Made by a program: the position numbers and the translations under genes. Below the pieces are notes generated by a model. That model did no database searches. It had not been told where the DNA came from and saw only the letters and a program-made list of their open reading frames with translations. A stretch of DNA of 63,475 bases, counting the filler. It is 6 parts of 6 records of this genome, joined end to end, with 100 filler letters (N's around TTAATTAATTAA, not from the genome) between each part and the next. Parts side by side here need not be neighbours in the genome. Positions count along the whole stretch, not along the records: positions 12,368 to 27,748 come from SRR22947725_1717; 5 more parts are not named here. One strand, given 5' to 3'. This document shows positions 3,328-52,755 of the stretch, in pieces. Position 1 is the stretch's first letter. Every line of letters starts with the position of its first letter.

Positions 3328-3798
3328 TTAGTAAACTTGTTTGATATTACCTGACAGACCACTTTTTAGCTCATACCGATCTGATTGTTTTTTCCCAAGT
3401 ATGGCAATACCAACAGGAGATTCGGGAGTCACAACAGTCACTTCTCCAAAATCTAATTTCAATTCAGTACCTCCACCGTGATTCATCAGAAAGAAGAACA
3501 TCGTTTCTCCATCTGAATCCACTTTCACCAAAGCCCCCACTCCAATCTGTTTCCCCACAAATGATTGTGCTTCCATGGCACGCAGTTCATCCACCTGAGC
3601 GGCGGTCTGTTTGAACTGAAGTGCGTGCCCACGCGCTAAATAGGACGCTTCCAAACCACAGGTATCCCACTTGGTTTCAGCTCTGGATTCGGCATTGGTC
3701 GCTCCATCAGATGCATTCTTGTTGGCGTTGAATTGACGACGCAAATTGGATTCCATGACCTCTAAGAGGCCTGTGATAATTTGAGATTTGTCCAGCAT
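3328..3798 (-). CDS. GreA/GreB-family C-terminal domain protein
   Basis: AETKWDT..LEASYLARG coiled-coil and IGVGALVKV...VVTPESPVGIAILGKK. Confidence 0.8.
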   Translation of the reverse strand: MLDKSQIITGLLEVMESNLRRQFNANKNASDGATNAESRAETKWDTCGLEASYLARGHALQFKQTAAQVDELRAMEAQSFVGKQIGVGALVKVDSDGETMFFFLMNHGGGTELKLDFGEVTVVTPESPVGIAILGKKQSDRYELKSGLSGNIKQVY

Positions 3799-4026
3799 TT
3801 AAAGTTTCAATGCCTTTTTGAACCCCTTTTTGTCAATACAAGATCCTGAGTATCTCTGATTTCGTAATCCAAAACTGGTCAAGAAAAACAAAACCAGCAA
3901 ACGCCTTTATCATACATCGCAATCAGCATAAGTCTTCTTGTACCGCTTGACGCCTTACTTCCACACCTTAAAGTAGCTCTTGGGCGCAACTTTGGAGCCC
4001 CAATGTGTTCATTAGAGTTAAGGTTT

Positions 4027-5325
4027 ATGCCACAATTTTCATATAAAGCGCGCAAGCGAAGCGGCGAATTGGTCCAAGGCGTCCTGGAAGTTCCGGACCG
4101 CTCAGCAGCCCTTTCCCAAATTGAAATGGAAGGAATGCTCCCCATTGCTCTGGATGCTGTCAAGAGTAAGGGTAAGGGCGCAAGAAAGGCATCCTCTTCA
4201 TCATCACAAGCAAGCCGCAAGTCATCAAGTAACGGGGAAGGATCCGCACCTCCTATCCTCCGCGAAATCTTCGGACGGAAGCGCAAGCCAAAACTGCAGG
4301 AACTCGCGACTTACACCCAGCAATTGGCAAACCTTCTCCACTCTGGCATGCCCCTCACAGTAGCTTTGAACAGTATGACGCATCTGCAGAGCAAGGGGAT
4401 CCCCAAAGAAATTAGTGAACAATTGCGTCAGGACGTCATGGAAGGTAAAGGACTCTCAGATGCAATGAGTAAACAGCCTCATATTTTTACGGATCTATAT
4501 GTCAACATGATTCGAGCAGGTGAACAGAGCGGTGCATTAGAGGAAGTACTCCATCGACTGGCGGCCCACTTTGAGCGATTCGCAGAGGTAAGGCAAAAGT
4601 TTGTTTCAGCTCTTATTTACCCTATCATCGTAGGTTCCGTTGGATTAGGCATCATCATTCTGTTCATGACGGTCATTTTGCCTAAATTCACTCAGATCTT
4701 CACCGACATGAAGGTCCCTCTGCCAGCATCTACTCAAGCTTTGATCACGATGAGTCGAATTTCGGCCTCTTACTGGTGGCTGGCTCCCCTGGTGTTCGTC
4801 GTCTTTTTGATTATTTACAAAAGGTTCAGTTCAACACCTTCCGGGCGTCATTCCATTGATAAATGGAAGTTATCCATTCCGGTCATAGGAAATGTTTTCA
4901 AACTAAACCTATTCGGGCAATTTGCGCGCACACTGGCCACCTTGCTCAAAAATGGTGTCCCTGTCCTGACCGCATTGAAAATCACCGAGAAAGTCATCCC
5001 TAATACAGTTTTGTCGGAGGCTATTGCCAAGACACGTGAAGATGTCACCGACGGTAAAACCATTTCTCAACCACTCAACCGCAGCAAAGTCTTTCCCCAG
5101 CTAATGATCGATCTGATCAAGATCGGGGAAGAAACAGGGGATGTGCCAGGTTCATTGCAAAGCGTTGCTGAAACCTATGAAAACGAACTCACCATCGCCC
5201 TTCGTGTAATGACTAATCTGGTCGAACCTGCGATGATCATTCTCATGGCAATTGGTGTGGGCGGACTGCTGTTCAGCATCCTCTCCGCCATGTTCCAAAT
5301 CACTTCAACTATTGGTAGTCGATGA
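4027..5325 (+). CDS. gspF: Type II secretion/T4P inner-membrane platform protein (GspF/PilC family)
   Basis: Likely start MPQFSYKAR; QLANLLHSGMPL, MIRAGEQSGAL, ALIYP, IGEETGD, LVEPAMI. Confidence 0.92.
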   Translation: MPQFSYKARKRSGELVQGVLEVPDRSAALSQIEMEGMLPIALDAVKSKGKGARKASSSSSQASRKSSSNGEGSAPPILREIFGRKRKPKLQELATYTQQLANLLHSGMPLTVALNSMTHLQSKGIPKEISEQLRQDVMEGKGLSDAMSKQPHIFTDLYVNMIRAGEQSGALEEVLHRLAAHFERFAEVRQKFVSALIYPIIVGSVGLGIIILFMTVILPKFTQIFTDMKVPLPASTQALITMSRISASYWWLAPLVFVVFLIIYKRFSSTPSGRHSIDKWKLSIPVIGNVFKLNLFGQFARTLATLLKNGVPVLTALKITEKVIPNTVLSEAIAKTREDVTDGKTISQPLNRSKVFPQLMIDLIKIGEETGDVPGSLQSVAETYENELTIALRVMTNLVEPAMIILMAIGVGGLLFSILSAMFQITSTIGSR

Positions 5326-5918
5326 CGTTCTCCCTGACGCAAAAAAACAAGGGGTTCACCCTCATCGAAGTCATGCTTGTGACAGGCATGATGCTTTTAT
5401 TACTGGGTTGGGGCGTCCCTAATATGTTGCGAGCTCTGGAAAAGCACGGGATCGCAAAAGCCAGCATGGACATCATGGACGGCTGCAAACAGGCACGCGC
5501 TTTGGCCATTCTAAAAGGAACAACAGCTGAATTTGTGATCACTGACGACGGGGAGTCTTATGTTTTATTTGTCGCTCAAACAAGCACCCCTCGCTTGATG
5601 AACACCGAAGCGGCCCAGGCGCCAGAGGACATGTATGCGCCGGGGCCCTTGCCATCGACGACTTCAAGAAAGACCAAAAGCGCTCTCGAGGAGCTGGATG
5701 GCTTCAGGAGGCGCCTTGATCAAGATATTGCACTGGAAACAATTGACGTCAATTTCATTGACCAAATGGCAGGCAATGAGGCTCGTGTGCGTTTTTTTGC
5801 GAATGGAACCTCGGATGAGTTCACAACCACGGTTCTTATGAACGAGGATCGGCGCATTATCAGTCTGGACCCTATCACAGGATTACCGAGCATGGTGGAT
5901 CCCAAATACCTCGACTGA
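5322..5918 (+). CDS. Type II secretion minor pseudopilin, GspH-like
   Basis: Prepilin cleavage motif KG|FTLIEVMLV; ARALAI and RFFANGT motifs; 4-bp overlap with gspF. Confidence 0.8.
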   Translation: MTFSLTQKNKGFTLIEVMLVTGMMLLLLGWGVPNMLRALEKHGIAKASMDIMDGCKQARALAILKGTTAEFVITDDGESYVLFVAQTSTPRLMNTEAAQAPEDMYAPGPLPSTTSRKTKSALEELDGFRRRLDQDIALETIDVNFIDQMAGNEARVRFFANGTSDEFTTTVLMNEDRRIISLDPITGLPSMVDPKYLD

Positions 5919-5937
5919 ATCTGAAAAAGATTACCCC

Positions 5938-6372
5938 ATGCGCATCCAAACAGGAACTTCCAGATACAGGCAAGCCTCCATCAGGTGGGCCTTCAGTCTA
6001 TTGGAAGTCATGATTGCCATTGCGATCTTTTTTACATCCGTCTTTGTCATTCTTGAATTAACAAGTCAGCACCTTCGTACGGCCCGCATCCTTCAAACAC
6101 TGGATGTGGATCGCACCAGTTTACCTTCCTTGCTTTCCATTACCAATTACCTGGAAATGGGTCCGTTGCCCATTGACGTTAAAATTCAATACGAAGATGC
6201 TCACCCGGGTGTCACCGTCAATGGATTCATCGAAGAAGTTGCCACGAACGGTTTATTCAGGATCGACTATTCCATTCATTGGATGTCTGAAAACAGCATG
6301 CGCCAGTCCCGCAACAGCATCTTGTTGTGGCGACCTAACATGGCAGGGGCAAGGGGACCTCTCTCAAGATGA
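5938..6372 (+). CDS. Type II secretion minor pseudopilin, GspI-like
   Basis: A|FSLLEVMIAIAIF prepilin motif; small size and position in operon. Confidence 0.75.
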   Translation: MRIQTGTSRYRQASIRWAFSLLEVMIAIAIFFTSVFVILELTSQHLRTARILQTLDVDRTSLPSLLSITNYLEMGPLPIDVKIQYEDAHPGVTVNGFIEEVATNGLFRIDYSIHWMSENSMRQSRNSILLWRPNMAGARGPLSR

Positions 6373-7142
6373 AGATTCACCTCAACACTATTGGCGTTCA
6401 ATGCAGAGGCCCTGAAGCAAATAGAGCCAAAGAATCTGGAGTCCGCACCGGATCTGCCAATGCATTCACCCTCATTGAAATCATGGTAGCAGTGGGCGTA
6501 TTGGGGGGCCTGATGGTGGCAATCTTCGCTTCCTGGCACGTCATTGTTCGCAGTTCACAAATAGGTATAACCGCATCCGTGGAAGCTCACCGAACGCGTG
6601 TCGCCGTTCGATCCCTGACCGATGCCATGACTTCGGCGATTATTTATGAATTGAACATGCCCTATTACGCCTTTCTCACAGACACAACTGAATCTTTCGC
6701 TGCATTCAGTCTGGTCTCAAGATTGCCGTCCACCTTTCCTGGGAGCGGTTTATTTTTCGACCAACCTCTGCGGCGTGTGACGTTCAGTGTGGAACCTACA
6801 AATTCCATGCATCAACTCATTATGCGCCAGAACCCGATCCTTTCTCCATTGGATCAAGGGCAGGAACCCTATCCCATGGTGCTGGCGAATAATGTCGGTG
6901 AATTCAAGATGGAATTTCTTGATATTCAATCTGGTGAATGGGTGCCGGAATGGGGCTTTACCAACCAGATGCCCGCCATGATTCGATTTTCACTGGGTTT
7001 TATTTCTCCAGCTTCCGGAAAGGTTGATGAAAACAGGATCATCAAACGTATTGTGCAAATACCAGCAGGTACCGTGAGAGCAGCATGGCAGCGACCCGTA
7101 TCACCCGCTGGGGCCTCAGGGATTCCACGTCAACTTCAGTAG
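6369..7142 (+). CDS. Type II secretion minor pseudopilin, GspJ-like
   Basis: A|FTLIEIMVAV motif; C-terminal W..EW...NQMP; overlaps upstream gene. Confidence 0.8.
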   Translation: MKIHLNTIGVQCRGPEANRAKESGVRTGSANAFTLIEIMVAVGVLGGLMVAIFASWHVIVRSSQIGITASVEAHRTRVAVRSLTDAMTSAIIYELNMPYYAFLTDTTESFAAFSLVSRLPSTFPGSGLFFDQPLRRVTFSVEPTNSMHQLIMRQNPILSPLDQGQEPYPMVLANNVGEFKMEFLDIQSGEWVPEWGFTNQMPAMIRFSLGFISPASGKVDENRIIKRIVQIPAGTVRAAWQRPVSPAGASGIPRQLQ

Positions 7143-7147
7143 ATCCA

Positions 7148-8221
7148 ATGCGAATCCCTCACTCACAACAGCCTAATTCAGCGAAAGACCAATCAGGCAT
7201 TGCTCTGATTATGGTGATGGTGGTCGTTCTTGCTCTGGGTATCATGGCGGCGCATTTCAGCTTTTCAATGAAAATTGAAACTCGACTGGCTATCAATACG
7301 ACGAGAGATCCCGATATGGAATGGATGGGGCGCTCAGGCGTGGAACTTGCCAAATATGTCCTGTCTGAAAAGATGACCATCCCTATTGAAAACCAATTCG
7401 ATTCATTGAACCAAATGTGGGCGGGGGGCCCATTCGGAACAAACGAGGTACTGGCTGCGATTTCGCTGCGAGATGTCTCTTTGGGCGACGGTGTCATCAA
7501 TGTCAAAATTGAAGATTTGGAACGGAGATTTAATGTCAACGTCCATGGGCCAGAGATCATTGCTCAAGCCTTGCTTTACATGGGGGTCGAGTCATTTCAA
7601 TCTTCAGTTATCATGGATTCGTTGATGGACTGGGTAGACCCTGACTTGATGGTACGAACCAATGGTGCTGATGAGGAAGATTATCTGGCCGAGCCCAATC
7701 CTCCCTTCCCTCCTTACCTTGTCAAAAACGGCCCTATCGATGACCTCTCCGAACTTCTTTTCATCCGAGGCATCACGCCTGAGATCTATTACGGCATTCC
7801 TTCTTTAGATCCTTCAATGATGCCCATGGGGATGGGAACGGGAACATTTGGTTTGGTTGATTTATTCACCGCCGTTGGGGGGTTTCAGGTCAATATCAAC
7901 ACTGCTTCACCAGCCGTTTTGCAAATGATACCAGGAATGGACGAAAATCTCGCCTTTGACATTGTCATGACTCGCGCTGGATTCGATGGCATGGATGGAA
8001 CGGAAGACGACTTGCCTTATGTCCGCATCCAGGACTTGCTCACCGTGCCCAGTATCACTCCTGATATCATGCAAAGTCTCCGACGCTATGTGACGAATCG
8101 CAGCAACACATTTGAAGTGATTGTCGAAGCTCAAATCGATGAGTACAGTCGGATTTACAGGGCCTTAATCGTCCGCGTGAGTGCACGGGAATTCGCAGTC
8201 CTGAACATGCGGTGGGAGTAG
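7148..8221 (+). CDS. gspK: Type II secretion minor pseudopilin GspK
   Basis: G|IALIMVMVV lacking E5; DSLNQMWA, IEDLERRFNVN, DWVDPD, ELLFIRGIT, VNINTAS. Confidence 0.9.
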   Translation: MRIPHSQQPNSAKDQSGIALIMVMVVVLALGIMAAHFSFSMKIETRLAINTTRDPDMEWMGRSGVELAKYVLSEKMTIPIENQFDSLNQMWAGGPFGTNEVLAAISLRDVSLGDGVINVKIEDLERRFNVNVHGPEIIAQALLYMGVESFQSSVIMDSLMDWVDPDLMVRTNGADEEDYLAEPNPPFPPYLVKNGPIDDLSELLFIRGITPEIYYGIPSLDPSMMPMGMGTGTFGLVDLFTAVGGFQVNINTASPAVLQMIPGMDENLAFDIVMTRAGFDGMDGTEDDLPYVRIQDLLTVPSITPDIMQSLRRYVTNRSNTFEVIVEAQIDEYSRIYRALIVRVSAREFAVLNMRWE

Positions 8222-8241
8222 AGGATCTCATTAAAAGCTCC

Positions 8242-8922
8242 ATGCAAGCGAAGTTAATTTTCATCACCGGAACGAATACGGGCACTGGAAAAACCTTGCT
8301 GACATGCCTCGGATTACATTACTTGCGCCAACACAATCATGCAGCTGCCGGTTTTAAGCCGTTCTGTTCTGGCTCAAGAAGTGATGCACATCATATTCAT
8401 TTTCACAGCGGCAAAATCTGGAACATTGAAGAGGTGAACCCATGGCATTTCGCCCCCCCACTTTCGCCAGGCGCCATGCCCAAAAGATCTCAAATCGGCA
8501 TGGCACAAGTCATCGAACAGATAAGAGGTAAACAAACGCAGTGCAGCCATCTCATTGTCGAAGGTGCAGGTGGGATCATGTCACCACTCGGCGCTGATTA
8601 TCATTTCGGCGATTTAATCAAACATTTTAAACCATCCTTACTTCTTGCAGCCCCCAACAAACTAGGGGTCTTGAATCAGGTTCTTTTAACAAGTGATTAC
8701 CTGAAACAAACAAAGAAGCACATTCAATTGAAAATCGTGTTGATGGGACAGAAAAAAGCGGACCCATCATCTCAATCCAATGCAAAGATATTGCGTGAAT
8801 GGATCCCAAACAGCCCCGTGATTGAATTACCTTTCATGGGACCACAGGCTAAGTCTCGCGCATCCATTCAAAAAAACGGGCAAAGACTGAATCTCACACT
8901 GAAAGCACTGTTTTCGACGTGA
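8242..8922 (+). CDS. bioD: Dethiobiotin synthase
   Basis: FITGTNTGTGKT P-loop, FKP, PLSP, IVEGAGG, LGVLNQ; ATG at 8242 is the likely start. Confidence 0.9.
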   Translation: MQAKLIFITGTNTGTGKTLLTCLGLHYLRQHNHAAAGFKPFCSGSRSDAHHIHFHSGKIWNIEEVNPWHFAPPLSPGAMPKRSQIGMAQVIEQIRGKQTQCSHLIVEGAGGIMSPLGADYHFGDLIKHFKPSLLLAAPNKLGVLNQVLLTSDYLKQTKKHIQLKIVLMGQKKADPSSQSNAKILREWIPNSPVIELPFMGPQAKSRASIQKNGQRLNLTLKALFST

Positions 8923-9073
8923 CGCGCATCCTGATACCCTGCTGAAAGCAAGCGCAACGCCATCTATCCGTACTTCAGCATTGCCTCCCAAGGATTCCTT
9001 GAGGTTTTGAAGAAATCCTTCCACCAGCATTTCGGTAATCTGTGGATTCAGTCAAGCCTTGGAAATCCTTCCA

Positions 9074-9969
9074 TCAAGCCCATTTCAAGGATGTCGTTTT
9101 CCCATGATCAGCCATGTTTCCCCCTGCGGCATTTAAAGTCAGATCCACACCTTTGTCTTTGAATCGGGCATTTATCCAGCCAACCGGTTGTGCATCATTA
9201 AAATTATAGCCCACTGCAGGTAAATTGATCAGATGCTTTCCTTCACGGAATCCATATTCATAGACATGAGAGTGACCGTAAAAGATGGCTTTCACCTTTG
9301 GATGAGGTTTGAGAATTTGAAACATGCGATCAGCATCGAGTAAATCACCATCTCTATCGCCTAGAGTATGGTGCACAAAAAAAACAACCGGGCGATCATC
9401 TACCTGATTCAAAAATGTCTTTAGCCAGGTCCGCTGCGCTTTCCCAAGCAAGCCTGCAACTTTATCCACGTAGAGTAGCGAATCTAATTGAACAATACGA
9501 ACAGCCGGGTGTTCGATGACTACCACATGCTTATTTTCTATTTCAGCGGTGTTGTCCTTGCTGGGTTGCATGACCTTGTGAAAATTTTCACGATGATCGT
9601 GATTTCCCATCCCTATGAATATGGGGCACTCGGCGGCAAGTGGATTGAGCAATTGCTTTAATTCCCGGTAATCCTCTACCTCTCCTGTCAATCGAGCCGC
9701 GTCACCATTAATCAATGCCGCTTGAGGCTTGGCAGCAATGACATCAGGCATGATTCGATTCAAATTTTCCCAGGGCCTGAATCCACGATACTCATTGGAT
9801 TTATCCGCGGGGATGTGAGTGTCAGAAAGGAGTGCAAGATGAAAGGAGTCATCCCCTTCCTGAGACTGAACAGGAGCCAAGCCGATCATAGCCGTTGTTA
9901 ACACTCCATTTCGGATAAAGCTCCGCAGATTGGTTTCTTTGCTGAATAGGGATGGCATTTCATTAACAT
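9074..9969 (-). CDS. Calcineurin-like metallophosphoesterase (Icc/CpdA-like), probably exported
   Basis: DTH, GD, GNHD, HH, GHSH motifs; start codon uncertain (ORF open to 10057). Confidence 0.85.
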
Positions 9970-10096
9970 GCAAAAAATGGCACATTTCGCAAGGTTTATC
10001 ATGGTTTCGCGAAGACAAATGGTTACTTGATCGTCGACGGTATTTTCTGTGCGGCACTTACCCTGAATCCCCTTTCAATCAGCAAGGATGCCCTGA

Positions 10097-11845
10097 AACC
10101 TGAGGGACAATGAAACAATTGAGAAGGCATCGTTCACATCGAATGGTGGAGCGCGCATTCGACTGCTCAATCAAAGACTGATTCAAAGCCAGACTATCCA
10201 TGCGGGTGGACGCTGCTTATCCTCTGATGAACCTACCCGAACATTTGCCATCTCAAGCAAGGAATCCGAGCCGGTAACATTGGAAATCATCTGGCCTGAC
10301 AACCGCAAGACACGGATTGCCAATGTTGATTTCAATCAACATTATGTGGTGCGATACTCGGAAGAGCACTCAAGGCAAGAACAAAGGGGGACGACAGATA
10401 ATAAACCGCTTTTCACAGATATCAGTCATTTATTGAATTACAAACACCAAGCCTCGCCAAACGTCGCCTCCTCTGCAGACGCATCGAAACCATTGGTAGA
10501 ACCCAATGCTCCAGGTGTGAGTTGGTTTGGTGTAAATCAAGATGGCTGGGAAGAACTTTGGATTTCCAGTGGGCTCAATCAGGCTCCCGGCATTTTCATC
10601 AATCGCAAAGGCAAGAGTTTTGAGGCTCTCCCATCACAGGCTGAGCAAAGAGCCCCACTGGGAGCATCCGTGCCTTGGGACAATGGTGGGGGAAAGCGTT
10701 ATTGGTTGGTTGCCGCTTCCCACCGAGTAACTCGGCCTAACCGAAGCAGTGCGGTGTTTTTCTTCAATGGCACCTCTACTCAACCTGAGTTGCAAATAGA
10801 AATCGGCTCTGAAGGCATTGGTACTCTGTGCGTCGCAGATGTAGATATGGACGGAGACCAAGACTTGTTTATCGGTTCTACATCGCCATACAAAAGATAT
10901 CCAGAACCTGTGAATTCGCAAATCTGGTTGAATCAGGATGGGACACTCACGAAAAGTCGCGAATGGAGTCAACCTTTTGTAAAAGCTGGTTATATAAGCG
11001 CGGCTGTATTTCTTGACCTTGAGGGAGATGGTCGACCGGATTTGGCACTTGCAACCGAATGGGGACCTGTGAAAGTGTTTCACAACAGTTCAATCGGGTT
11101 TATCAATCAAACCAGCTCGCTGGGGCTCAACACTCAAACAGGGCGATCGAGATCCGTTGCTACAGGAGATTTTGATAATGATGGCAAAATGGATCTTGTC
11201 GCTGGCAACAAAGGATTGAACACCTCAAGTACACTTCATCATCATTCCAAAGAAAAAATTTGGTTTGGAAGCAAAAGGGAGAATAACCAAGTAGAATCCA
11301 TTGAATCTTTTTTGAGCGGTGAAGACTGGCTGCCCTACCGAGATCGAACTATTCTATCCATATTTTTCCCCGAGCTGACTCGTATCATCAACAATCACCA
11401 CCAGTTCAGCAAAAGCAGGATAAACTCTGTTCTGGGAGACAGGTTCAAAAACTTTAAATTTCAGGAGAACAGAATTTACGAACCCAGTGTCTTCCTGAAC
11501 CAACAAGTTGGTTTTCAACGACTACCGATTCATCCGGACGCTCATGAATCACCTGTTTTTTCCATAAGCTTAAGTAATATAAACAAAGACCATTTCTTGG
11601 ATATCTTTTTAGGTCAAAACAAGTTTCCGGATAATCCCGAAGTTACACGCAATGATAATGGCCAAGGAATTTGGTTAATGGGTGATGGAGAGGGGTCATT
11701 CGGGTATGCGGGATCAGTAAAAACAGGCATTGAAGTTTTCGGGCAATCGCGTGGTTCATCAATCAATGATTTCAATAAGGATGGAAAGCCAGATTTGGTA
11801 GTAGTGCAAAAAAATGCAGAAGCACGCCTTTTCAATGGGTTTTGA
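10097..11845 (+). pseudogene. 5'-truncated ASPIC/UnbV + FG-GAP/VCBS repeat (CRTAC1-like) gene
   Basis: Frame opens after a stop at 10094-96 with no ATG or signal peptide, mid-ASPIC domain (GARIRL..QSQ..GGRCLSSDEP..LEIIWP); DVDMDGDQDL, DFDNDGKMDL, DFNKDGKPDL repeats follow. Confidence 0.6.
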
Positions 11846-12078
11846 CCCAAAATAGGCTTGGCTTTTTTATTACCGCCAAGCAGGAGCTGTGAATGGGTAT
11901 GCGGATGACCACTCCAGAGTGCCTGAGAACTAACTCCTAATATAGCACATATCCATCCATAAATCTCACTTATTGCACTTTACTTTAAAAAATGCCCACC
12001 ATAGGGTTGGATCAAACCCAAATGTTGGAAGACGCTACGACGTCTGGAAATGTAAGGTACGAATAGCTAAACCAAATT

Positions 12079-12267
12079 ATGTTTAAATACAAAAACCTCC
12101 TGCTCACAGTAGCAGCAACCTTGACGCTTCAATGCACGGTTTCGGCCAATGACATTGAACCCGGCAAGGAATTCTACACAGCGATCAAGGCGCCTGCGCC
12201 GATCGTTTTGGATGGTGATCTCTCCGAATGGAGAGGCGCTTCACTTCTGGCAGACCCAAGATTCTCG
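12079..12267 (+). CDS. Secreted protein N-terminus (CBM9/sugar-binding-like), truncated at contig end
   Basis: Signal peptide then APIVLDGDLSEW motif. Confidence 0.6.
12238..12267 (+). repeat. 30-bp direct repeat, copy 2
   Basis: Identical to 1-30. Confidence 0.95.
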
Positions 12268-12367
12268 NNNNNNNNNNNNNNNNNNNNNNNNNNNNNNNNN
12301 NNNNNNNNNNNTTAATTAATTAANNNNNNNNNNNNNNNNNNNNNNNNNNNNNNNNNNNNNNNNNNNN
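12268..12367. other. Artificial contig spacer
   Basis: 100 bp: N-run, ttaattaattaa (stops in all six frames), N-run. Confidence 0.99.
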
Positions 12368-12684
12368 CATCTCTTATTATTAAAGAGCCACACAATCCAT
12401 GATGCGTACATCAGTGTATAAATAATTGCAAATATTGCATCCCAAATTTGAAGGAATTGGCTATAGCAAAGAAGCTGTTCTTGAGATCTTGATTCAAAGA
12501 AGCTCAGAACCATATCCTTTGTGTAAGAAAAAGAGAGGCCCAATGAATTTGAGCCGCTATCCAGCTTGAAACAGGCTCCAGCAGGAGTTAAGATAAGTGT
12601 GATATAAAGTATGAATGCCACAGTAGAGCCTATAGCAAAATAGAGAATATTTTTGTTCATTGAAACTAGAGTTGTTTTACTCAT
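12368..12684 (-). CDS. Hypothetical membrane protein (3'-truncated)
   Basis: Hydrophobic segments; runs into spacer. Confidence 0.6.
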
Positions 12685-20103: not shown

Positions 20104-20811
20104 TTAAGCGTCGCTAGACTCTCTTACAGCTACATTCCAAATAATTAAACCAAACAGAATCTTATTAACAAAATCTGCAAGGTTGTAAATAATGTTCAGT
20201 GAGCCTGAGTCAACACTACCCATCATATATCCAAAGATATATCCTAGAGGATAGATTGCCCAACCAACTAAAACAATAAGTCTTAGTGCGTTGAAGGCAG
20301 ATTTAACTCCTGCATTAGCATCTGCAGCCTTACTTGCTTCACCACCGAAGATTTCCCAGATGATGATTGCCCAACCTACCATTCCTATAATAAATCCTAG
20401 GGAAGCCGAGATTAGCATTGCCTCACCTGCAAATCCACCGATAAGCATAACCAGAGTACCAACTAGTAGTCTCCAGAAAGAGTTTGTTGAGATGCTGGCA
20501 CCAACTGCTTTAAGAATAATGAAGAATTCAATCATTAATAAAGGTACAGTGATTAACCAGTCAATATATCTATAAACTATAGGAGAATCTGGTGAGCCAG
20601 CAATTACTGAAGCAACCCAATAGTCTCTCATATAGTAGTAGTGAATTGCTGCAACTAGTGTCACTAGTCCTGCAATTGTCATTGAAAGTTTCCATTCTTT
20701 TTTTACTGACATTCCTTCATAAAAAAAGAACACTGTTGCAGCTACCATAGCAACAGATACTAACCAAAAAGAGACGCCAACAAAATCTCCAGCTTGTAAC
20801 ATGCCTTCCAT
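20104..20811 (-). CDS. Proteorhodopsin (DTE proton pump, Leu105 green-tuned)
   Basis: RYIDWLITVPLLMIEF (D97/T101/L105/E108), His75 in AIHYYYMR, retinal Lys in NLADFVNK. Confidence 0.97.
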   Translation of the reverse strand: MEGMLQAGDFVGVSFWLVSVAMVAATVFFFYEGMSVKKEWKLSMTIAGLVTLVAAIHYYYMRDYWVASVIAGSPDSPIVYRYIDWLITVPLLMIEFFIILKAVGASISTNSFWRLLVGTLVMLIGGFAGEAMLISASLGFIIGMVGWAIIIWEIFGGEASKAADANAGVKSAFNALRLIVLVGWAIYPLGYIFGYMMGSVDSGSLNIIYNLADFVNKILFGLIIWNVAVRESSDA

Positions 20812-22191: not shown

Positions 22192-22710
22192 ATGAAAAAT
22201 TTTCTACTCTTTTTCTTTCTTTCTATGACTATCGCTAGTTCTGCTAATGCTGATGGAGCTGACGACTGGCAAGATGTTGATTTTAATACAGATATATTAA
22301 ATCAACTGAATCAATGTAAGGGCTGTGACTTACGCGCCACCAATTTTATTGGCGCCAACCTCTCAGGCGCAAACTTGAGTGGCGCAAACTTTATTGAAGC
22401 TAAACTCAGTGGCGCAAACTTGAGTGGTGCAAATTTTGAAGGATCAAGCTTATTTGGAACTAGTTTTGAAGGGTCAAATTTAGAGAATACTTCATTTTTT
22501 GCAGCCAATCTTTTTGGCGTAACTCTTAAGGAGGCATGGTTGATTGGAGCTGACCTGAGACAAGCGGATTTAAGTAATGCTGATTTAACGCTAGCCAATC
22601 TTACCGGTGCAAACCTGACAAATGCAAATCTAAGAGGGGCAATCCTTAATGGCACAATTTTTTGTAATACTAAAACCCCATGGGGCATAGACAACTCTTC
22701 ATGTGAGTGA
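22192..22710 (+). CDS. Secreted pentapeptide-repeat protein
   Basis: Signal peptide, CKGCDL, tandem A(N/D)LxG repeats, TIFCNT...NSSC. Confidence 0.93.
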   Translation: MKNFLLFFFLSMTIASSANADGADDWQDVDFNTDILNQLNQCKGCDLRATNFIGANLSGANLSGANFIEAKLSGANLSGANFEGSSLFGTSFEGSNLENTSFFAANLFGVTLKEAWLIGADLRQADLSNADLTLANLTGANLTNANLRGAILNGTIFCNTKTPWGIDNSSCE

Positions 22711-23826: not shown

Positions 23827-24834
23827 ATGATAAAAACATTGCAAATTTCTGAAAAAGAGGCGTGGGATTTAGCATTCAACGCTCTTGTCAATAACAATAC
23901 TTCAGAAGATAATGCCAAAGAGGTTGCTGATGCATTAATCAGTGCGGAGTTTGATGGCCAGGCCGGTCATGGACTTTCACGAATACCCTCTTATGTTGAG
24001 CAGCTGACTGCAGGAAAGGTTAAAGGCACGGAGGCGCCATCGATAATTAGTTCAAAGGGAAGCGTCATTAGAGTTGACGCTAAAAATGGCTTTGCCTACC
24101 CTGCCATTTCTTTAGCATTAAAAGAGATAACGACTGCCTGTAAAAAATTTGGAATTGCTGCTTCTAGCATAACGCGCTCTCATCACTTTGGTCAAGCTGG
24201 AAGGCATGTTGAGATCCTAGCTGACAATGGACTAATTGGTTTAATGTTTGGAAATACGCCCAAAGCGATTCCGCCTTGGGGTGGTACAAAGGCCTTATTT
24301 GGTACGAACCCAATAGCATTTTCTGCGCCTAGAGAAAACGATGCACCAATGGTAATAGATATGAGTCTAAGTAAAGTTGCACGCGGAAAAGTGATGGTCG
24401 CGAACCAGCAGGGTGAAAAAATTCCAGAGGGCTGGGCCATTGATAGTGAAGGTAAGCCTACGACTGACCCAAAGAAGGCTTTGGAGGGTGCGATGCTTCC
24501 AATCGGAGACGCCAAAGGAAGTGCTCTTGCGCTGATGGTAGAGGTATTGGCTGCAGGGCTTACTGGTTCTAATTTTGGGTTTGAGGCAAGCTCGTTTTTA
24601 AATGCTGAGGGAGACTCGCCGGGAGTTGGGCAGCTCATTATAGCAATTGACCCTAGCTTTTTTGCAGGTGATCAATTCTCTGAGAGAACAGAGACCATGG
24701 TAACTTCAATTCTTGAGCAGCCATCAACGAGACTTCCTGGCAATAAACGCCTGGAAAAAAGAAAGCTTCGTGAGAGTTCTCAGACTATAACTATTTCAAA
24801 AGAGTTGTTTGAAAAGATAAACAGTATTTCATAA
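23827..24834 (+). CDS. Ldh_2 (type-2 malate/lactate) family oxidoreductase, ComC/DpkA-like
   Basis: GHGLSRIPSY, SHHFG, FGTNPIAF, VARGK, IPEGWA, KGSALALMVEVL, RLPG. Confidence 0.9.
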   Translation: MIKTLQISEKEAWDLAFNALVNNNTSEDNAKEVADALISAEFDGQAGHGLSRIPSYVEQLTAGKVKGTEAPSIISSKGSVIRVDAKNGFAYPAISLALKEITTACKKFGIAASSITRSHHFGQAGRHVEILADNGLIGLMFGNTPKAIPPWGGTKALFGTNPIAFSAPRENDAPMVIDMSLSKVARGKVMVANQQGEKIPEGWAIDSEGKPTTDPKKALEGAMLPIGDAKGSALALMVEVLAAGLTGSNFGFEASSFLNAEGDSPGVGQLIIAIDPSFFAGDQFSERTETMVTSILEQPSTRLPGNKRLEKRKLRESSQTITISKELFEKINSIS

Positions 24835-24836
24835 AA

Positions 24837-24866
24837 GACCGTATTTTATATGACCGTATTTTATAT
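24837..24866 (+). repeat. 15-bp tandem duplication
   Basis: gaccgtattttatat x2, followed by agacc. Confidence 0.85.
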
Positions 24867-24913: not shown

Positions 24914-25852
24914 TTGATTATTAGGATTATGAAAATATCAAGTTCCAACGTATCGAAGACATTAATTAGCTCGATTTTGACCATGTCACTCGGATTTTCT
25001 TTAAGTGTCAATGCGGATGATTCAGAGCAGATTAAATCATCACTCATGAGTAGGATGACCAGTGCGACTGGTTCCTTCATCTCATCCGGAATTGGAGCTA
25101 TGCTAAGCCCTAATTTTGATAAAGTTGAAGTTAGTACTAATTTGAAAGAAGGTGACTCCACAATTGATATAGGTGTTTTGAAGGCTTATGGTGATAATCC
25201 TAACTCCTTTATTTTTAATCAGATCAATCTTAATCGTTATGATAAGAGGACAACTTTAAATCTAGGTGTTGGCTATAGAAATCTTAATGCAGACCAGACC
25301 TGGATGACTGGTGTCAATGCATTCTATGATCATGAGTTCCCGGATGATCACAAACGTAACGGTGTTGGATTTGAAGTCGTTAGTTCAGTCTTAGAGTCTA
25401 GAGTAAATATTTATAACGGTACTACTGGGTATATCAAGGACAAGAGTGGAACAGATTCAAAAGCACTTGATGGAAGAGACATGGGTTTTAAGGTTGCGCT
25501 ACCATACATGCCTGGTATGAAGTTTGGTATGAATGCTTTTGCATGGAAAGGTATTGATGGCATGAAAGATAAAAAGGGCAGAAAATATACTCTAGGTGGA
25601 AATCTTTCAGACAACTTATCTCTGGAATACATTCGAACTGACTATAAAGATGCTGCTACTAAAGATACAGATAGCATCGCCTTGAACTACACCTGGAATT
25701 TTGGTCAGGACAACACACAACCGAAATTATTTGAATTCTCAAGTACGGCCTATGAGCTTACAAAATTAGGTGATGAAAGATACAACCTAGTTCAGCGTGA
25801 GAATCGAATTGTTAAGAAAAAGTCTGGTGTATTAACTGTGGCAGGATACTAA
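24914..25852 (+). CDS. Inverse autotransporter (intimin/invasin-type) beta-barrel with no passenger domain
   Basis: Signal peptide; TLNLGVGYR, GVNAFYD, GVGFE, LDGRD strands; linker RYNLVQRENRIV followed by only 12 residues; start may be 24929. Confidence 0.88.
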   Translation: MIIRIMKISSSNVSKTLISSILTMSLGFSLSVNADDSEQIKSSLMSRMTSATGSFISSGIGAMLSPNFDKVEVSTNLKEGDSTIDIGVLKAYGDNPNSFIFNQINLNRYDKRTTLNLGVGYRNLNADQTWMTGVNAFYDHEFPDDHKRNGVGFEVVSSVLESRVNIYNGTTGYIKDKSGTDSKALDGRDMGFKVALPYMPGMKFGMNAFAWKGIDGMKDKKGRKYTLGGNLSDNLSLEYIRTDYKDAATKDTDSIALNYTWNFGQDNTQPKLFEFSSTAYELTKLGDERYNLVQRENRIVKKKSGVLTVAGY

Positions 25853-25853
25853 T

Positions 25854-26825
25854 ATGAAAACAATACATTTAAACAAATTAATACTTTTAACTGGCTTATT
25901 TATAGTCTCAATTGTTTTCTCAGCTGGAGCTGATGCTAGCTGTAGATACAACTCCGGATTGCTTGATGTAAAATCTGGAGCTCAACAATATCAAGTTTAT
26001 GATACTGCAATTGGCGGAGGTCGCTATGTTGATGCCTGTAATGATACCCCAGACGAATATGAGATAACGTTTTATAAGTTGGGGCTTTGTACTGCAACAA
26101 CAGCAGCAAATGATTTGAATTCATGTCAGTACGTGGTGAATAATACTGCTGGTGTGACCCATGTAATTGAGAAAGGATCGTCTGGCGCTATGGCAATTCC
26201 AGAGTTTTCAATTGATCCTGGAACATACCCCTACATGGTTGTCGTGATTAGTAATAAACTTGGAATTAAGCACTCATTTACAGCTGCTTATAGCCTGACA
26301 GGACTGAGCTCTAGTGCTGGTGCAACATGTTGGACAGCTGATGCTGGACCTAGTGCTTATACAAATGAGCGAAAGAATACACCTCATGGATGGACCTCTG
26401 CAGATGGTGCGCAATTAATTAAGTGCGGAGCAGCATCTGCTAGTGCACCTGTATTCTCTTATGAAGTTATCAATAAGCTAACTGAAGAAGAATGCGCTGA
26501 TAGCTGGGTTGCCAACGGAGATTACTCTAGTTTTGGAACAGTTGGAAATGGAACTGCTGAAGTCTCTCTTCTTCAATCAACAGATGTTTTTGCAACAACT
26601 TGTGAAAATGCAGCAAAAATTCTGTGGACAACAACGCTGACAACGCCTTATGTTATAACAGCAGATTCTACTTATCAGTTAAACATGAAGACGACTGATT
26701 CAGTCTCTATTGATTTTGATAGTGGTGTTGTGGACGAAGCCGCTGATCCTGTAGTTGGTTCAAACAATAACATCATTAAGATGGGTGCTGATCCAGTTCA
26801 ATTGTATCTGACTGTTACTAATTAA
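25854..26825 (+). CDS. Secreted Cys-rich beta-rich protein, putative partner of the barrel
   Basis: Starts 1 bp after barrel stop; signal peptide; 8 Cys; Thr/Ala/Ser/Gly-rich. Confidence 0.8.
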   Translation: MKTIHLNKLILLTGLFIVSIVFSAGADASCRYNSGLLDVKSGAQQYQVYDTAIGGGRYVDACNDTPDEYEITFYKLGLCTATTAANDLNSCQYVVNNTAGVTHVIEKGSSGAMAIPEFSIDPGTYPYMVVVISNKLGIKHSFTAAYSLTGLSSSAGATCWTADAGPSAYTNERKNTPHGWTSADGAQLIKCGAASASAPVFSYEVINKLTEEECADSWVANGDYSSFGTVGNGTAEVSLLQSTDVFATTCENAAKILWTTTLTTPYVITADSTYQLNMKTTDSVSIDFDSGVVDEAADPVVGSNNNIIKMGADPVQLYLTVTN

Positions 26826-26843
26826 TTATTATTGAGGGAGGGT

Positions 26844-27560
26844 TTAGCTTAAGCTAGACCTTCCTCCATCTACTCCAATAATCTGGCCAGTTATCCAAGT
26901 TGAGTCTTCACTCAAAAGGAATTTAGCAATTGATGCGGAGTCTTTTCCTTCACCAAGTCTTTTGAGTGGGTGCGCCTTAGCAAGTGCCTCAGCAACCACT
27001 TTACTTTTAAGCATGGACTGAGAAATCTTGGAATCGGTAAGACTTGGAGCTATGCAGTTAACACGAATACTTGGCGCAAATTCGGCGGCAAGTGTGACAG
27101 TTAATCCTTCAAGAGCAGCTTTAGCAGATGCAATAATGGTGTGATTTGTAAATCCTTTCTGAGCAGTAACTGAGGAAAATAAAACAATTGATCCATTATT
27201 TGTTTTTAAATCATCTTGAAAGCCTTTGATTGCTTCAATAGCTGAGTAAAGGTTTAGTTTCATACACTGATGTAAGTCAGATTCGGTCACTCTCTTGATG
27301 GGCTTCAAGTCAATTGAACCGATACAGTAGGCAAGTCCATTAATATTAAATTCCGATGTATCAGAATTAATTTTATCTATAAAGCCATCCTCCAGAACGT
27401 CCGCCACCGTGAAAGTAAAACCTAAATTATCTGAAATAGATTTGAGCTCATCTTCATTTCTGGCAACAAGGTGTGCTTCCTGCCCAGACTCTTTAAGTTG
27501 ATGCGCAAGACTCGAGCCGATGGCACCAGTTGCCCCAAATATGAGATGTTTGTTAGACAT
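26844..27560 (-). CDS. Short-chain dehydrogenase/reductase
   Basis: GATGAIG, GSI.LKP, ASAKAALEGL, RVNCIAP, VDGG. Confidence 0.9.
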   Translation of the reverse strand: MSNKHLIFGATGAIGSSLAHQLKESGQEAHLVARNEDELKSISDNLGFTFTVADVLEDGFIDKINSDTSEFNINGLAYCIGSIDLKPIKRVTESDLHQCMKLNLYSAIEAIKGFQDDLKTNNGSIVLFSSVTAQKGFTNHTIIASAKAALEGLTVTLAAEFAPSIRVNCIAPSLTDSKISQSMLKSKVVAEALAKAHPLKRLGEGKDSASIAKFLLSEDSTWITGQIIGVDGGRSSLS

Positions 27561-45063: not shown

Positions 45064-46077
45064 TTATTCAGCTGCCATTTGCTCTTTAATAAATGCGTGA
45101 GCTGCAGTTGCATCAACACCTTTTGCACTCACTTCTGCAATGACTTTTGTAATTAAAGGGCCAGTCATTGCTTGCCATTTAGTTGCATCCGCAGCGGAAG
45201 CTTCGGTCAAGTTATTGTCCGAATTTTCATTTAGCGCTGCCATACCCGCTGTGTCGATCTTATCCCAAGCTTTACCGGCTGCGCGCGACAAGTTTTCTCC
45301 AAACACTTTGCTCAGAGCCATGCGGTCCACATCAGACAAATTGTCGAAGGTATCTTGGTTCATAATAACAGCGAAAGATCCACGATAAAAACCACCAGGT
45401 ACTTGGTATGTATTCTTGGCTACTTCAAATAGTTTAAAGCTTTTTTTCGCCTCCATGGGCATCATAACTCCGTCAGCTGAGTTTGAAGCTAATGTTTCAT
45501 AAACTTTTGGAGCAGGAACCCGGATACCTGTTGCGCCCAGTGCTGCACCAACATCGCCGGATACCCCTCCCCCGAGCCGCAGTTTCATGCCAGCTATGTC
45601 TTCCAAAGAAGATATTTGCGCATTGGAATGTAAAGCCCCTGGGCCATGGGTCATCATCGCCAATACTTTGACGCCCTTATGTTCGCCTAACCCAGCAAAG
45701 AATTTATCGTAGGCGCGCCAACTTGCAACTGAAGCTGCTTCTGCATTGCCTTGGTAACCTGGCAGTTCGATCATTTTTGTTGATACAAAACGGCCTGGAG
45801 AGTAACCGTGGAAAATCCATGTAATATCTGCTGCACCATCAAGAATTAGATCAAATTGTGCGGGTGGAGAACCCAGCCCATACTTAATTTCGGCACTCAC
45901 GCGGCCATTTGTTGCATCCTCCATTGCCTTGGTCAGTTCTGGAAACATTATCGCATTCATGCCATGGGTGGGTGGTGCCCAAGATGAAATTGTGAGGGTG
46001 GTGTCGGCGGCATACGCGGCAATAGATGCTACAGAAAATGCGGCGGCGGCAATGCCCGTTTTAATTAAATGGCTCAT
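45064..46077 (-). CDS. TRAP transporter substrate-binding protein (DctP family)
   Basis: Signal peptide; SSWAPPTH, DGAADI, PGRF, GMKLR, YETL..ADG. Confidence 0.92.
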   Translation of the reverse strand: MSHLIKTGIAAAAFSVASIAAYAADTTLTISSWAPPTHGMNAIMFPELTKAMEDATNGRVSAEIKYGLGSPPAQFDLILDGAADITWIFHGYSPGRFVSTKMIELPGYQGNAEAASVASWRAYDKFFAGLGEHKGVKVLAMMTHGPGALHSNAQISSLEDIAGMKLRLGGGVSGDVGAALGATGIRVPAPKVYETLASNSADGVMMPMEAKKSFKLFEVAKNTYQVPGGFYRGSFAVIMNQDTFDNLSDVDRMALSKVFGENLSRAAGKAWDKIDTAGMAALNENSDNNLTEASAADATKWQAMTGPLITKVIAEVSAKGVDATAAHAFIKEQMAAE

Positions 46078-46214
46078 TGTGTATCTTCTCCCTTTTGTTT
46101 GAGGTTTGTGTAAAAAGTTTAGCTATTTGCTTTGACCACGGAATTGCCATTTGTGAAATTGACCACCTGGCGGACAAATGACAGCATTATGATTGGTTAT
46201 TTTGCAATCTCTCT

Positions 46215-46982
46215 TCAAAGTATTCCAACAGAAATTTCAATAGCAGTTTGTTGCAATTCAGCTGCATACCTTTCGATGGCTCGCTCCATTTCCATTGCTT
46301 TAGTAACCCAGATAATTGACAGGCAACCGATAGCACGTTCATCAGAAATAATTGGTACTGAAAGGCTAGAAGTTTTAGGCCTAAACGTTTGCGGCCCACG
46401 AGTAGCAAATCCTTGTTTTAAATAAATATTAAGATTATTTTCGAGCCACTCCTCCTGTAAAAATGGCAAATCTTCCACAACATTTTCTGCTCGGAGCAAA
46501 TCAATTATTATTTCACGCTCCCGTCCCGCACAGACTGACAGATACGCTCGTCCAGATGAAGAGCGTAGCATAGGTAAGGAATAGCCAATCATGCCTGGGT
46601 CAACCGATAGTGGACTACGGCTATGAGTGGATTCTTGAATTATCATATGCGCGTCTGCATAAGTGGAAAGATCAACTGGCCATGCGTGCGCATCAGTAAA
46701 TTTAACCAAACTTGGGGCGGCTACTTGGCAAAGCTGCGAACGTGTCGATGAGCTGTCCCCTAAGGTGGCCGCCAGCGGCGATAAACGCACACGAGAGTCG
46801 CTTCCAGAATAAAGAACATAACCGTCTTCTTCCAGTGTATTGAGTAGGCGATAAACTGTCGTGCGAGGCAACCCTAATTCAAGGGCTATCTCACCGACGC
46901 GGGCTGCGCCCACTCTGTTTAATAACCGCATAATATTTAGCCCACGTGAAAGTGCCCGCACGTTATCAGGACCTGACGACAT
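46215..46982 (-). CDS. IclR-family transcriptional regulator (MhpR-like)
   Basis: VRALSRGL, LPRTTVYRLLNTL HTH; SSSGRAYLS effector domain. Confidence 0.9.
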   Translation of the reverse strand: MSSGPDNVRALSRGLNIMRLLNRVGAARVGEIALELGLPRTTVYRLLNTLEEDGYVLYSGSDSRVRLSPLAATLGDSSSTRSQLCQVAAPSLVKFTDAHAWPVDLSTYADAHMIIQESTHSRSPLSVDPGMIGYSLPMLRSSSGRAYLSVCAGREREIIIDLLRAENVVEDLPFLQEEWLENNLNIYLKQGFATRGPQTFRPKTSSLSVPIISDERAIGCLSIIWVTKAMEMERAIERYAAELQQTAIEISVGIL

Positions 46983-47032
46983 TTAACCTGCCCAATCTCA
47001 GGCAAACGAGATGTTCGCCTAGGCTTTTAGTT

Positions 47033-48013
47033 TCATCCCGCAACTATGGTTTGGTCAATAGCACCAAAAATACTTTTTCCTTCACTGTTGAGCATTTCAA
47101 ATCTAATGGTGTCCCCTGGATTCATGAATCGAGTGGTAGCCTTGCCATTCTGTATGGTCTCAATCATACGCTTTTCCGCCAAGCAGTTGGAACCCACTTC
47201 TTCGTTATTTTCATTACTAACCGTCCCCGAACCAATTATGGTACCGGCTGCCAGATTTCTGGTACGGGCTGCATGTGCTATTAAATCTGTGAACTCAAAG
47301 CTAAGGTCTTTGCCGGCATCTACTATCCCGAACTGATTGCCATTATAAGTCGTTATTAATGGTAAGTTAATGCGGCCGCCGGTCCATGCTGCACCCAGCT
47401 CGTCGGGTGTAACGCAAACGGGTGAAAAGGCGCTGGCAGGTTTTGATTGAAAAAAGCCAAAACCTTTTACTAATTCTGGGCGCATAATATTGCGCAGGCT
47501 GATATCATTACATAACATGATCAGCTTTATATGCGACTTGGCTTGCTCGGGAGAGCAACCCATGGGTACATCATCTGTAATAACGGCTATTTCACCCTCA
47601 AAATCTAGGCCCCAGTCTTTCTCAACACACGGTATGGGATCAACTGGACCAAGAAACCCGTCGCTGCCTCCTTGATAAAGCATTGGGTCTGTCTCAGAGT
47701 TTTCAGGCATCTCAGCACCGCGGGCTTTGCGTACCAGCCGCATGTGGCTTAAATAAGCACTGCCGTCAGCCCATTGAAATGCGCGTGGTAAGGGAGAAGC
47801 CAAAGCTCTGGGGTCATATGGGATAGTTTCGACCTCAAAAGCCTCCATTTTATCATTAAGAGCCCGCAGCAAAGGCTCAGTGACCCTCCAGTCTTCGATA
47901 GCATCACGAACGCTTTTAACAACAGATGTTGCTAGAACCATGCGTGACAAATCTCGGGATACTACAACTGGCGTGCCATCACGGCCACCAATCTTCAAGG
48001 ACGCAAGCTTCAT
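47033..48013 (-). CDS. Fumarylacetoacetate hydrolase family protein
   Basis: MKLASLK..GRDG, PLPRAFQWADGSAY, DFEGE, NDISLR, IIGSGTVSN. Confidence 0.93.
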   Translation of the reverse strand: MKLASLKIGGRDGTPVVVSRDLSRMVLATSVVKSVRDAIEDWRVTEPLLRALNDKMEAFEVETIPYDPRALASPLPRAFQWADGSAYLSHMRLVRKARGAEMPENSETDPMLYQGGSDGFLGPVDPIPCVEKDWGLDFEGEIAVITDDVPMGCSPEQAKSHIKLIMLCNDISLRNIMRPELVKGFGFFQSKPASAFSPVCVTPDELGAAWTGGRINLPLITTYNGNQFGIVDAGKDLSFEFTDLIAHAARTRNLAAGTIIGSGTVSNENNEEVGSNCLAEKRMIETIQNGKATTRFMNPGDTIRFEMLNSEGKSIFGAIDQTIVAG

Positions 48014-48039
48014 AGTAAGGGTTCTCTTTCTTTTGTTAA

Positions 48040-52746: not shown

Positions 52747-52755
52747 TCTGTTTCC

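Follow-up and report, generated by a model that had tools for sequence, protein, structure and literature searches.

A conserved two-gene outer-membrane module in marine bacteria: a minimal type Ve barrel with a conserved tail and an exchangeable secreted partner

Two genes lie one base apart on the plus strand of a 63,475-nucleotide stretch of marine bacterial DNA (the window, by which we mean the whole stretch analysed). The first encodes an inverse-autotransporter (type Ve) β-barrel protein that ends shortly after its lumen linker; the second encodes a cysteine-rich exported protein of no named family, here called the partner. ATG 24929 is the likely start of the barrel gene and gives 307 residues, the size that nearly all of the 120 homologues listed also have; an earlier in-frame TTG at 24914 would give 312 residues (open reading frame, ORF, 24914-25852). 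The barrel stop codon, TAA at 25850-25852, is followed by a single base, T at 25853, and then by the ATG of the partner at 25854. The features of the pair are as follows:

24929..25852, plus strand: barrel gene, ATG 24929, 307 residues, passenger-less inverse-autotransporter (type Ve) β-domain protein
24929..25015, plus strand: barrel signal peptide, residues 1-29, cleavage after V-N-A; A29 is nearly invariant in an alignment of 15 barrels (A3)
25778..25813, plus strand: lumen linker RYNLVQRENRIV, residues 284-295, aligning with the intimin/invasin linker
25814..25849, plus strand: C-terminal tail KKKSGVLTVAGY, residues 296-307, the proposed 'handle' strand
25854..26825, plus strand: partner gene, a 323-residue exported, 8-cysteine, all-β protein of an unnamed family
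25854..25937, plus strand: partner signal peptide, residues 1-28, A-D-A/S-C; helix 8-21 in the model, A-x-A-x-C consensus in the partner-family alignment (A1)
26799..26819, plus strand: partner C-terminal strand QLYLTVT, residues 316-322 in the model, with an LTV in common with the barrel tail; candidate chain strand

The barrel belongs to the Pfam family IAT_beta (PF11924; E 4.6e-34, 118.7 bits against a cut-off of 22.3), the match covering residues 33-297 of the 312-residue form and model positions 12-279 of 279; it also matches the crystallized barrels of invasin (4E1T, E 1.5e-14) and intimin (4E1S, E 7.6e-11). The alignment with the crystal chains halts three residues short of the end of the constructs, so the barrel product extends only about eight residues further, ending in KKKSGVLTVAGY. 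Its linker, RYNLVQRENRIV, follows the pattern R-Y-x-L-V-x-R-x-N-x-I and sits on the linker of intimin and invasin; in A3, whose barrels are 27-85% identical, V288, R290 and N292 are invariant, and Y285 and E291 nearly so. There is no covalent C-terminal passenger: the barrel protein stops 12 residues past the linker, no LysM domain is matched by Pfam, and the NCBIfam matches reach only the barrel part of full-length adhesins, far below their cut-offs. The passenger-less barrel of the original prediction is thus borne out, by the end of the ORF as well as by the crystal-chain alignments. A homologue search returned 636 barrel proteins; the 120 listed are 265-314 residues long (almost all 307-314), and some of them carry the name 'inverse autotransporter beta domain-containing protein'.

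In all 15 barrels of A3, 11-14 residues follow the linker; T303 and G306 among them are nearly invariant, and most chains end in G-Y, G-I or G-F. Since both length and end are kept across 27-85% identity, where a functionless end would drift, the tail is a conserved element. In intimin, according to PMC13078405, the linker (residues 434-444) is followed by a strand, 445-449, that packs onto extracellular loops 4 and 5, and then by a four-residue connector to the first immunoglobulin-like (Ig-like) domain; measured against that description, the window tail takes the place of the connector and of the first strand of D00, which is the first extracellular domain of intimin. The position of the intimin cap strand, L446-E447-Y448, is occupied by K-K-K in the window barrel.

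The partner starts with a hydrophobic helix (8-21) followed by A-D-A/S, has eight cysteines (30, 62, 79, 91, 159, 191, 214 and 250) and ends in QLYLTVTN; its own ATG, its signal peptide and its model agree with the earlier description of a separate Sec-type exported protein of 323 residues with eight cysteines, rich in β-structure. Its homologues number 451, in 201 representative clusters, and across the 52 sequences of A1 six cysteines (C30 among them) and one proline are invariant. With A1 as input, AlphaFold2 predicts the monomer at a mean predicted local distance difference test (pLDDT) of 91.3 and a predicted template-modelling score (pTM) of 0.86, as 18 strands plus the signal-peptide helix, almost all of it β; without an alignment the prediction is unusable (pLDDT 35). 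The fold so predicted is a confident one with no solved or viral relative detected: Pfam and NCBIfam give zero matches, a sequence profile against the Protein Data Bank (PDB) gives nothing significant, Foldseek against the PDB reaches E 0.011 (TM 0.10) at best, and the best match in the viral library BFVD has E 0.036. VIA-align against 48,161 representative chains reaches a best Z of 4.1, with a root-mean-square deviation of 3.2 Å over 91 residues, and no chain at Z ≥5, where the background for models without a clear match has best Z values of 7-8; its weak rows tend to stretch from about residue 68 to residue 323, some 80-110 positions being aligned.

For a DUF4382-like, pilin-like or Ig-like fold of the partner, the sequence-profile and structure (Foldseek, VIA-align) searches gave no significant match. 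Ig-like chains are not prominent in the Foldseek or VIA-align results, a weak or missing match being still compatible with an Ig-like fold. DUF4382 (PF14321) is not supported, as every hit to it falls below the Pfam cut-off of 25 bits: none of the 52 members of A1 matches it at E ≤0.1, and hhalign gives a probability of 3.9%; the lipoproteins of that family resemble the partner in size (about 300 residues) and in being β-rich, but have lipoprotein signal peptides, which most partners lack. The leads that point towards DUF4382 are weak (an Atlas feature score of 0.90, and E 0.012 with 16.3 bits against a cut-off of 25 for the secreted protein at the distant locus L035, described below); DUF3060 is a lead only, from the Atlas at 0.91 on 19% of a cluster.

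The two genes travel together. The A1 profile finds the partner family in 20 of the 122 genomes of the order that holds a Candidatus Thioglobus single amplified genome (SAG), at 24 distinct places, of which 19 have a barrel directly upstream; the other five are two orphans in one genome (L031, L032), two fragmentary or contig-end cases (L019, L020) and one hybrid remnant (L025). Elsewhere in the same SAG stands a second pair (L005), for which identity to the window pair is 31% in the barrel and 26% in the partner; against A1, this partner type gives an hhalign probability of 48% (E 1.8e-4) over the N-terminal domain only, which is suggestive and leaves the relationship unsettled. In a sample of 400 genomes of the class, IAT_beta is present in 32, and five of these hold barrel-only genes, seven in all (frames of 296-331 codons); all seven are immediately followed by a gene for a signal-peptide protein, namely recognisable partners at L004, L034, L038 and L063, the L005 type, and proteins of 238 and 244 residues at L035 and L037. 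The last two loci lie in genomes of high G+C (G652 and G842), where the tails of the barrel-only proteins end in …ARGN or …GRRN; their secreted proteins, 34% identical to each other, fall outside detection by the partner profile but have the N-terminal pattern of the partners and a C-terminal strand like theirs, and may form a third partner family, a very distant one. At L063 and L064, two partners stand in tandem behind one barrel.

A metagenome scan with the barrel as query gave 80 loci, seven of which could not be judged. Among the 73 evaluable ones, a partner follows the barrel in 58 (46 full-length, 12 cut by a contig end), is broken or partial in nine, and is absent in six, where an intact barrel stands beside a convergent gene for a short-chain dehydrogenase/reductase (SDR). 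The 46 full-length partners start at -13 to +2 nucleotides from the barrel stop, the window having a gap of one. Because the two-gene layout recurs in distant lineages, it stands above chance; the adjacency proposed earlier is therefore conserved (19 of 24 places, 58 of 73 loci, seven of seven barrel-only genes), and beyond mere local synteny. The pair occurs in many marine samples: among the sequencing runs listed, 19 from 15 studies contain the stretch or part of it, 17 of them with at least half of the sampled words, and nine are on record as RNA. Contigs from four RNA-filed runs (four studies) cover both genes nearly identically with zero insertions or deletions listed, and two of these bridge the junction without a difference (X5, 25771-25921; X8, 25802-26014).

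One 1.7-Mb genome, G488 (L062, L064, L065), is particularly rich in these genes. Two of its three barrels are 99.6% identical in DNA. Its partner genes comprise two that are linked to barrels and differ in type, two in tandem that belong to the L005 type, and two orphans; one partner is followed by a secreted protein of 250 residues with the C-terminus …RVFF. A cluster resembling type IV pilus or type II secretion systems, with a secretin, an ATPase, a platform protein and two prepilin-like genes, lies about 3.6 kb from one of the orphans.

Within the pair, it is the partner that varies. Related genomes have barrels 77-90% identical to that of the window and partners that fall away in steps of about 75%, 45% and 32%. 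Over the 46 full-length metagenome pairs (1035 pairwise comparisons), the median identity is 44% for partners (minimum 33%) and 83% for barrels (minimum 73%), the barrel being the more conserved of the two in 1023 of the 1035; single linkage at 65% identity yields at least 11 partner types. The partner is thus hypervariable relative to the barrel, as anticipated. The boundary of this variability is sharp: in one genome two barrel copies are 99.6% identical over 1025 nucleotides, comprising the barrel and the first bases of the partner, and then continue into unrelated partner types; between the window and its relatives, DNA similarity ends about 50 nucleotides into the partner and returns at the downstream gene. 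Partners are also lost. A deletion has removed the partner at L133 and L135, leaving a barrel with a hybrid end in which its tail runs in frame into the final residues of the partner; the 128-residue ORF at L025, with matches to the ends of both barrel and partner, is likewise a natural deletion product. This pattern of variability and loss is what is expected of a surface protein pressed by phages, grazers or other outside agents, and the partner would seem to be under diversifying or fluctuating selection from such agents.

How the two proteins might meet is suggested by a model of the complex, computed from mature barrel (30-307) and mature partner (29-323) with ESMFold2, without alignments and with three controls. 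The median score is 0.75 (runs of 0.76, 0.71 and 0.75), against 0.01 for the best of the three controls; at least 87% of contacts are common to the runs, and the pLDDT of the partner is 74 or higher. The score mark used is reached by 51 of 78 solved complexes and by two of 108 mismatched pairs. The predicted interface comprises residue 176 and the tail (297-307) on the side of the barrel, and residues 76, 94-95, 103, 105-113, 115, 117-120 and 270-281 on the side of the partner, the latter mainly in two segments:

26160..26213, plus strand: partner residues 103-120, the end of strand 91-106 and the next loop, touching the barrel tail in the model
26661..26696, plus strand: partner residues 270-281, with strand 273-279, in parallel pairing with tail residues 302-307 in the model

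The contacts of lowest expected error (0.9-1.5 Å) are those of barrel residues 302-307 with partner residues 274-279; as these run in register, the two strands would be parallel. Barrel residue D176 aligns with intimin residue 323, beside the extracellular loop-4 residue Y322, and the model thus sets the partner on the extracellular face of the barrel. On this prediction, barrel and partner very probably bind through the tail. It had been proposed that the tail is a donor strand that completes the fold of the partner; of this, the strand itself is supported, being predicted to lie against the partner (0.75 against 0.01), but the completion is conjectural, the monomer being predicted to fold confidently alone (pLDDT 91.3).

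Taken together, the pair is a conserved two-gene outer-membrane module of a minimal barrel, a conserved tail and an exchangeable partner, and as such a variant of type Ve secretion. The fuller reading, that the module serves surface display by means of a conserved 'handle' strand that holds exchangeable surface cargo, we consider probable, if well short of certain. Under it, the two translationally coupled genes would form one surface-display module. The barrel protein would be exported by Sec and inserted into the outer membrane, with its linker running through the lumen as in intimin; by homology, a linker that crosses the lumen would bring the last 8-12 residues of the tail out on the cell surface. 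There the tail would act as a β-strand 'handle', predicted to pair in parallel with partner strand 274-279 and to be covered by partner residues 103-120, a contact that in the model keeps the partner at the outer face of the barrel beside loop 4. The partner, disulfide-rich and all-β, would be the exposed and exchangeable part. For its crossing of the outer membrane, a route that depends on the barrel, or on assembly by the β-barrel assembly machinery or the translocation and assembly module (BAM/TAM), appears most likely, as proposed for ZirT/ZirS.

Type II secretion was considered as an export route and rejected. The GspF and GspK genes of the window sit in a part that is 100% identical to an unrelated genome, and a secretin is found in two of five related genomes that carry the pair and not found in the other three; a route present in only two of five pair-bearing genomes cannot be general.

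Several observations weigh against surface anchoring by a handle strand. The 12-strand barrel has its lumen plugged by its own linker and offers no obvious passage for a 30-kDa protein with three to four disulfides. The partner monomer is predicted as a complete and confident fold without the tail, and the tail contact may be an edge-strand addition only, capped by loop 107-122, which fits the predicted contacts equally well. The score of the complex comes from one model family run without alignments, and seven of 44 blindly drawn neighbouring gene pairs pass the mark too. The predicted interface shows no extra conservation, either in the first comparison of mean column entropy (2.42 against 2.26, p 0.61) or in the second (1.43 against 1.41, p 0.91), which is neutral to mildly unfavourable for a fixed socket. 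Nor does the tail covary with the type of partner, as it had been expected to do: the tails …SGVLTVSGY and …SGTLTVSGY are each seen with several partner types. Barrels stay intact at loci that have lost the partner and orphan partners exist, so each part may also work without its neighbour. Finally, as an RNA library can contain DNA, the contigs from RNA-filed runs are compatible with expression of the pair and do not prove it.

Among the alternatives, the one that survives best, though unlikely, is two-partner secretion in the manner of ZirT/ZirS, with the barrel translocating the partner into the medium and the tail contact being short-lived, a matter of targeting or priming and not a lasting anchor. 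ZirT-ZirS-ZirU and the 'two-partner inverse autotransporters' of PMC4943183 have the same gene order, in which the barrel gene precedes one or two genes for secreted proteins; the tandem partners at L063 and L064 would suit it, as would the three of five related genomes in which no secretin was found. Less easily accommodated are the regular strand pairing, whose expected error of 0.9-1.5 Å suggests a stable contact, and the constant length and end of the tail, which suit a structural element; moreover, barrels of the ZirT type retain Ig-like domains thought to bind their substrates (PMC4943183), and these the window barrel lacks.

Surface anchoring by the handle can also be taken further, into a reading we regard as doubtful: the tail, with eight residues taken as invariant, would insert as a β-strand, a universal plug into a socket common to all partner types and a load-bearing, non-covalent anchor; the partners would be cassettes swapped, duplicated or deleted under pressure from phages and grazers, and their LTV strands would build short hetero-oligomeric fibres where a barrel has two partner genes or where orphan partners occur. 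If this were true, the system would represent a 'split passenger' form of type V secretion and a third kind of strand-exchange pilus, one that needs just two genes and neither usher nor chaperone, and its carriers would be among the most abundant bacteria of the sea.

Slightly harder still to sustain is a strand-linked chain or short filament, in which the tail plugs the first partner and the LTV-type C-terminal strand of each partner plugs the next, to give a minimal pilus-like fibre or stack. Every lineage seen has an alternating strand at the C-terminus of the partner that is similar to the barrel tail, but that pattern is common to any terminal β-strand, and strand 316-322 already lies within the AlphaFold2 monomer fold. 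The tandem (L063, L064) and orphan (L031, L032) partners are compatible with a chain, and the natural deletion at L133 and L135, by fusing the tail in frame to the last residues of the partner, is in its favour; most loci, on the other hand, have a single partner, and no chaperone or usher genes lie near the locus.

A separate or periplasmic action of the two proteins is improbable. The barrel would then be a plugged outer-membrane protein with a role of its own, and the partner a periplasmic protein that is co-regulated with it or binds to its periplasmic face. The intact barrels beside deleted partners and the orphan partners would both be natural on this account; the eight cysteines point to folding in the oxidising periplasm, and an export route for the partner is not evident. 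It leaves unexplained why adjacency is retained across barrels just 27-38% identical, and why it is the tail and extracellular loop 4, not the periplasmic turns, that take part in the predicted interface; furthermore, type switching at 33-45% identity behind an 83% identical neighbour is rare for periplasmic proteins.

That the pair is a single inverse-autotransporter gene split by a frameshift, the case named in the original prediction as fatal to it, has next to nothing to recommend it beyond frames just one base apart, and can for practical purposes be discarded: the partner comes with a start codon and a signal peptide of its own, intact two-ORF layouts recur in 46 of the 73 evaluable metagenome loci, the contigs of four runs contain no insertion or deletion and two cross the junction without a difference, and no fused homologue of 567-2000 residues was found, which is weak evidence of its own.

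The organism that carries the pair can be placed by its neighbours. The barrel is 85-86% identical, among the matches listed, to proteins that NCBI assigns to Candidatus Pseudothioglobus singularis under the name inverse autotransporter beta domain-containing protein, and the nearest genome loci of the partner are in the Candidatus Thioglobus SAG and in an uncultured gammaproteobacterial SAG, with the same neighbouring genes; these assignments speak against the SAR86/SAR11 setting first suggested. The pair is flanked by genes for an Ldh_2 dehydrogenase and a convergent SDR, as in relatives. Between the partner stop and the SDR gene lies the following feature:

26837..26864, no strand: palindrome I1, 17-nucleotide arms, 88% complementary

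This palindrome is a possible two-way terminator; the terminator scan did not call it, and promoter and terminator scans gave counts no higher than in shuffled sequence. A tandem direct repeat with a 15-nucleotide unit (…GACCGTATTT…) occupies 24832-24861, in the intergenic region about 70 nucleotides 5' of the barrel start, and is a possible regulator site. Further upstream are a 172-residue signal-peptide protein made up almost wholly of pentapeptide repeats (22192-22710, plus strand, E 2.3e-37) and, 4 kb from the pair, a rhodopsin gene (20104-20811, minus strand; Bac_rhodopsin, E 1.2e-47).

The window as a whole is probably a chimeric contig or a carrier of very recently transferred DNA. Over positions 23-12267 it is 100% identical to a contig of G001; this genome of 3.6 Mb comes from another family and lacks the barrel/partner pair. 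From 12368 on, it matches a Pseudothioglobus-like genome at 92% identity, in a region about 10 kb away from the barrel/partner locus there. The matching genome changes and the G+C falls, from 46-49% to about 36%, at the same spot (about 12368), which points to such a chimera or transfer. Searches for the partner family in relatives drawn round G001 were negative (0 of 61 and 0 of 401 genomes), a result that misleads, since nothing of the window but its first 12 kb, which are foreign, matches G001. This foreign part (1-12370) holds the type II secretion genes GspF (4003-5325) and GspK (7085-8221), a WYL/WCX regulator, TilS and a tRNA (3184-3258). A second block of 46-50% G+C, at 46000-54000, contains aromatic-degradation genes, with a homogentisate dioxygenase (50644-51996), a fumarylacetoacetate (FAA) hydrolase, a flavin adenine dinucleotide (FAD) monooxygenase, a glyoxalase-type dioxygenase and an IclR regulator; it has no match in G001 or in two Pseudothioglobus-like genomes, and may be an island or another foreign piece.

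Compared with known systems, the window barrel shares its barrel domain and lumen linker motif with intimin and invasin (4E1S, 4E1T) and differs from them in that their passenger is covalently attached, while it has none. A terminal strand that joins the sheet of another polypeptide is the principle of donor-strand complementation in chaperone-usher pili and of strand exchange in the type V pili of Bacteroidia. The window pair resembles these in the predicted joining of a terminal strand to the sheet of another polypeptide, which would make a non-covalent outer-membrane anchor; it differs from them in that the partner monomer is predicted to be complete and the pairing to be parallel to one strand and capped by a loop, and, from chaperone-usher pili, in that no chaperone or usher genes were found near the pair, whose neighbours encode the Ldh_2 dehydrogenase and the SDR.

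Closest in gene order are ZirT/ZirS/ZirU of Salmonella, SinH/SinI and Yfr4, in which, according to PMC4943183, an inverse-autotransporter barrel gene is likewise followed by one or two genes for barrel-less signal-peptide proteins, which the barrel is proposed to serve. The barrels of ZirT, SinH and Yfr4 keep Ig-like passengers resembling the downstream proteins (PMC4943183), whereas the window barrel ends 12 residues past its linker. Unlike substrates of the Zir type, the window partner resembles no part of its barrel protein and is not detectably Ig-like; its predicted contact is a single terminal strand, and the system occurs in free-living marine bacteria with many exchangeable partner types. 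In the literature searched, neither a barrel-only inverse autotransporter with a strand-docked partner nor such a system in Pseudothioglobus/SUP05 was found, the supplementary tables of PMC4943183, which may list barrel-only members, lying outside that search.

The question how an inverse-autotransporter barrel can serve a separately encoded protein has been called a "Gordian knot" (Heinz et al. 2016, PMC4943183). For this problem of type V secretion, open since ZirT/ZirS, the pair described here is the simplest case so far of a barrel with a separate protein: one barrel, a 12-residue tail and one partner. For structural biology, it offers a confidently predicted partner fold for which no solved relative was found. 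For the bacteria themselves, the partner, often lost and present in at least 11 types, has the behaviour of a variable surface antigen; this antigen-like variability and loss make it a candidate phage receptor, or a candidate determinant of grazing or attachment, in the Pseudothioglobus/SUP05 group.

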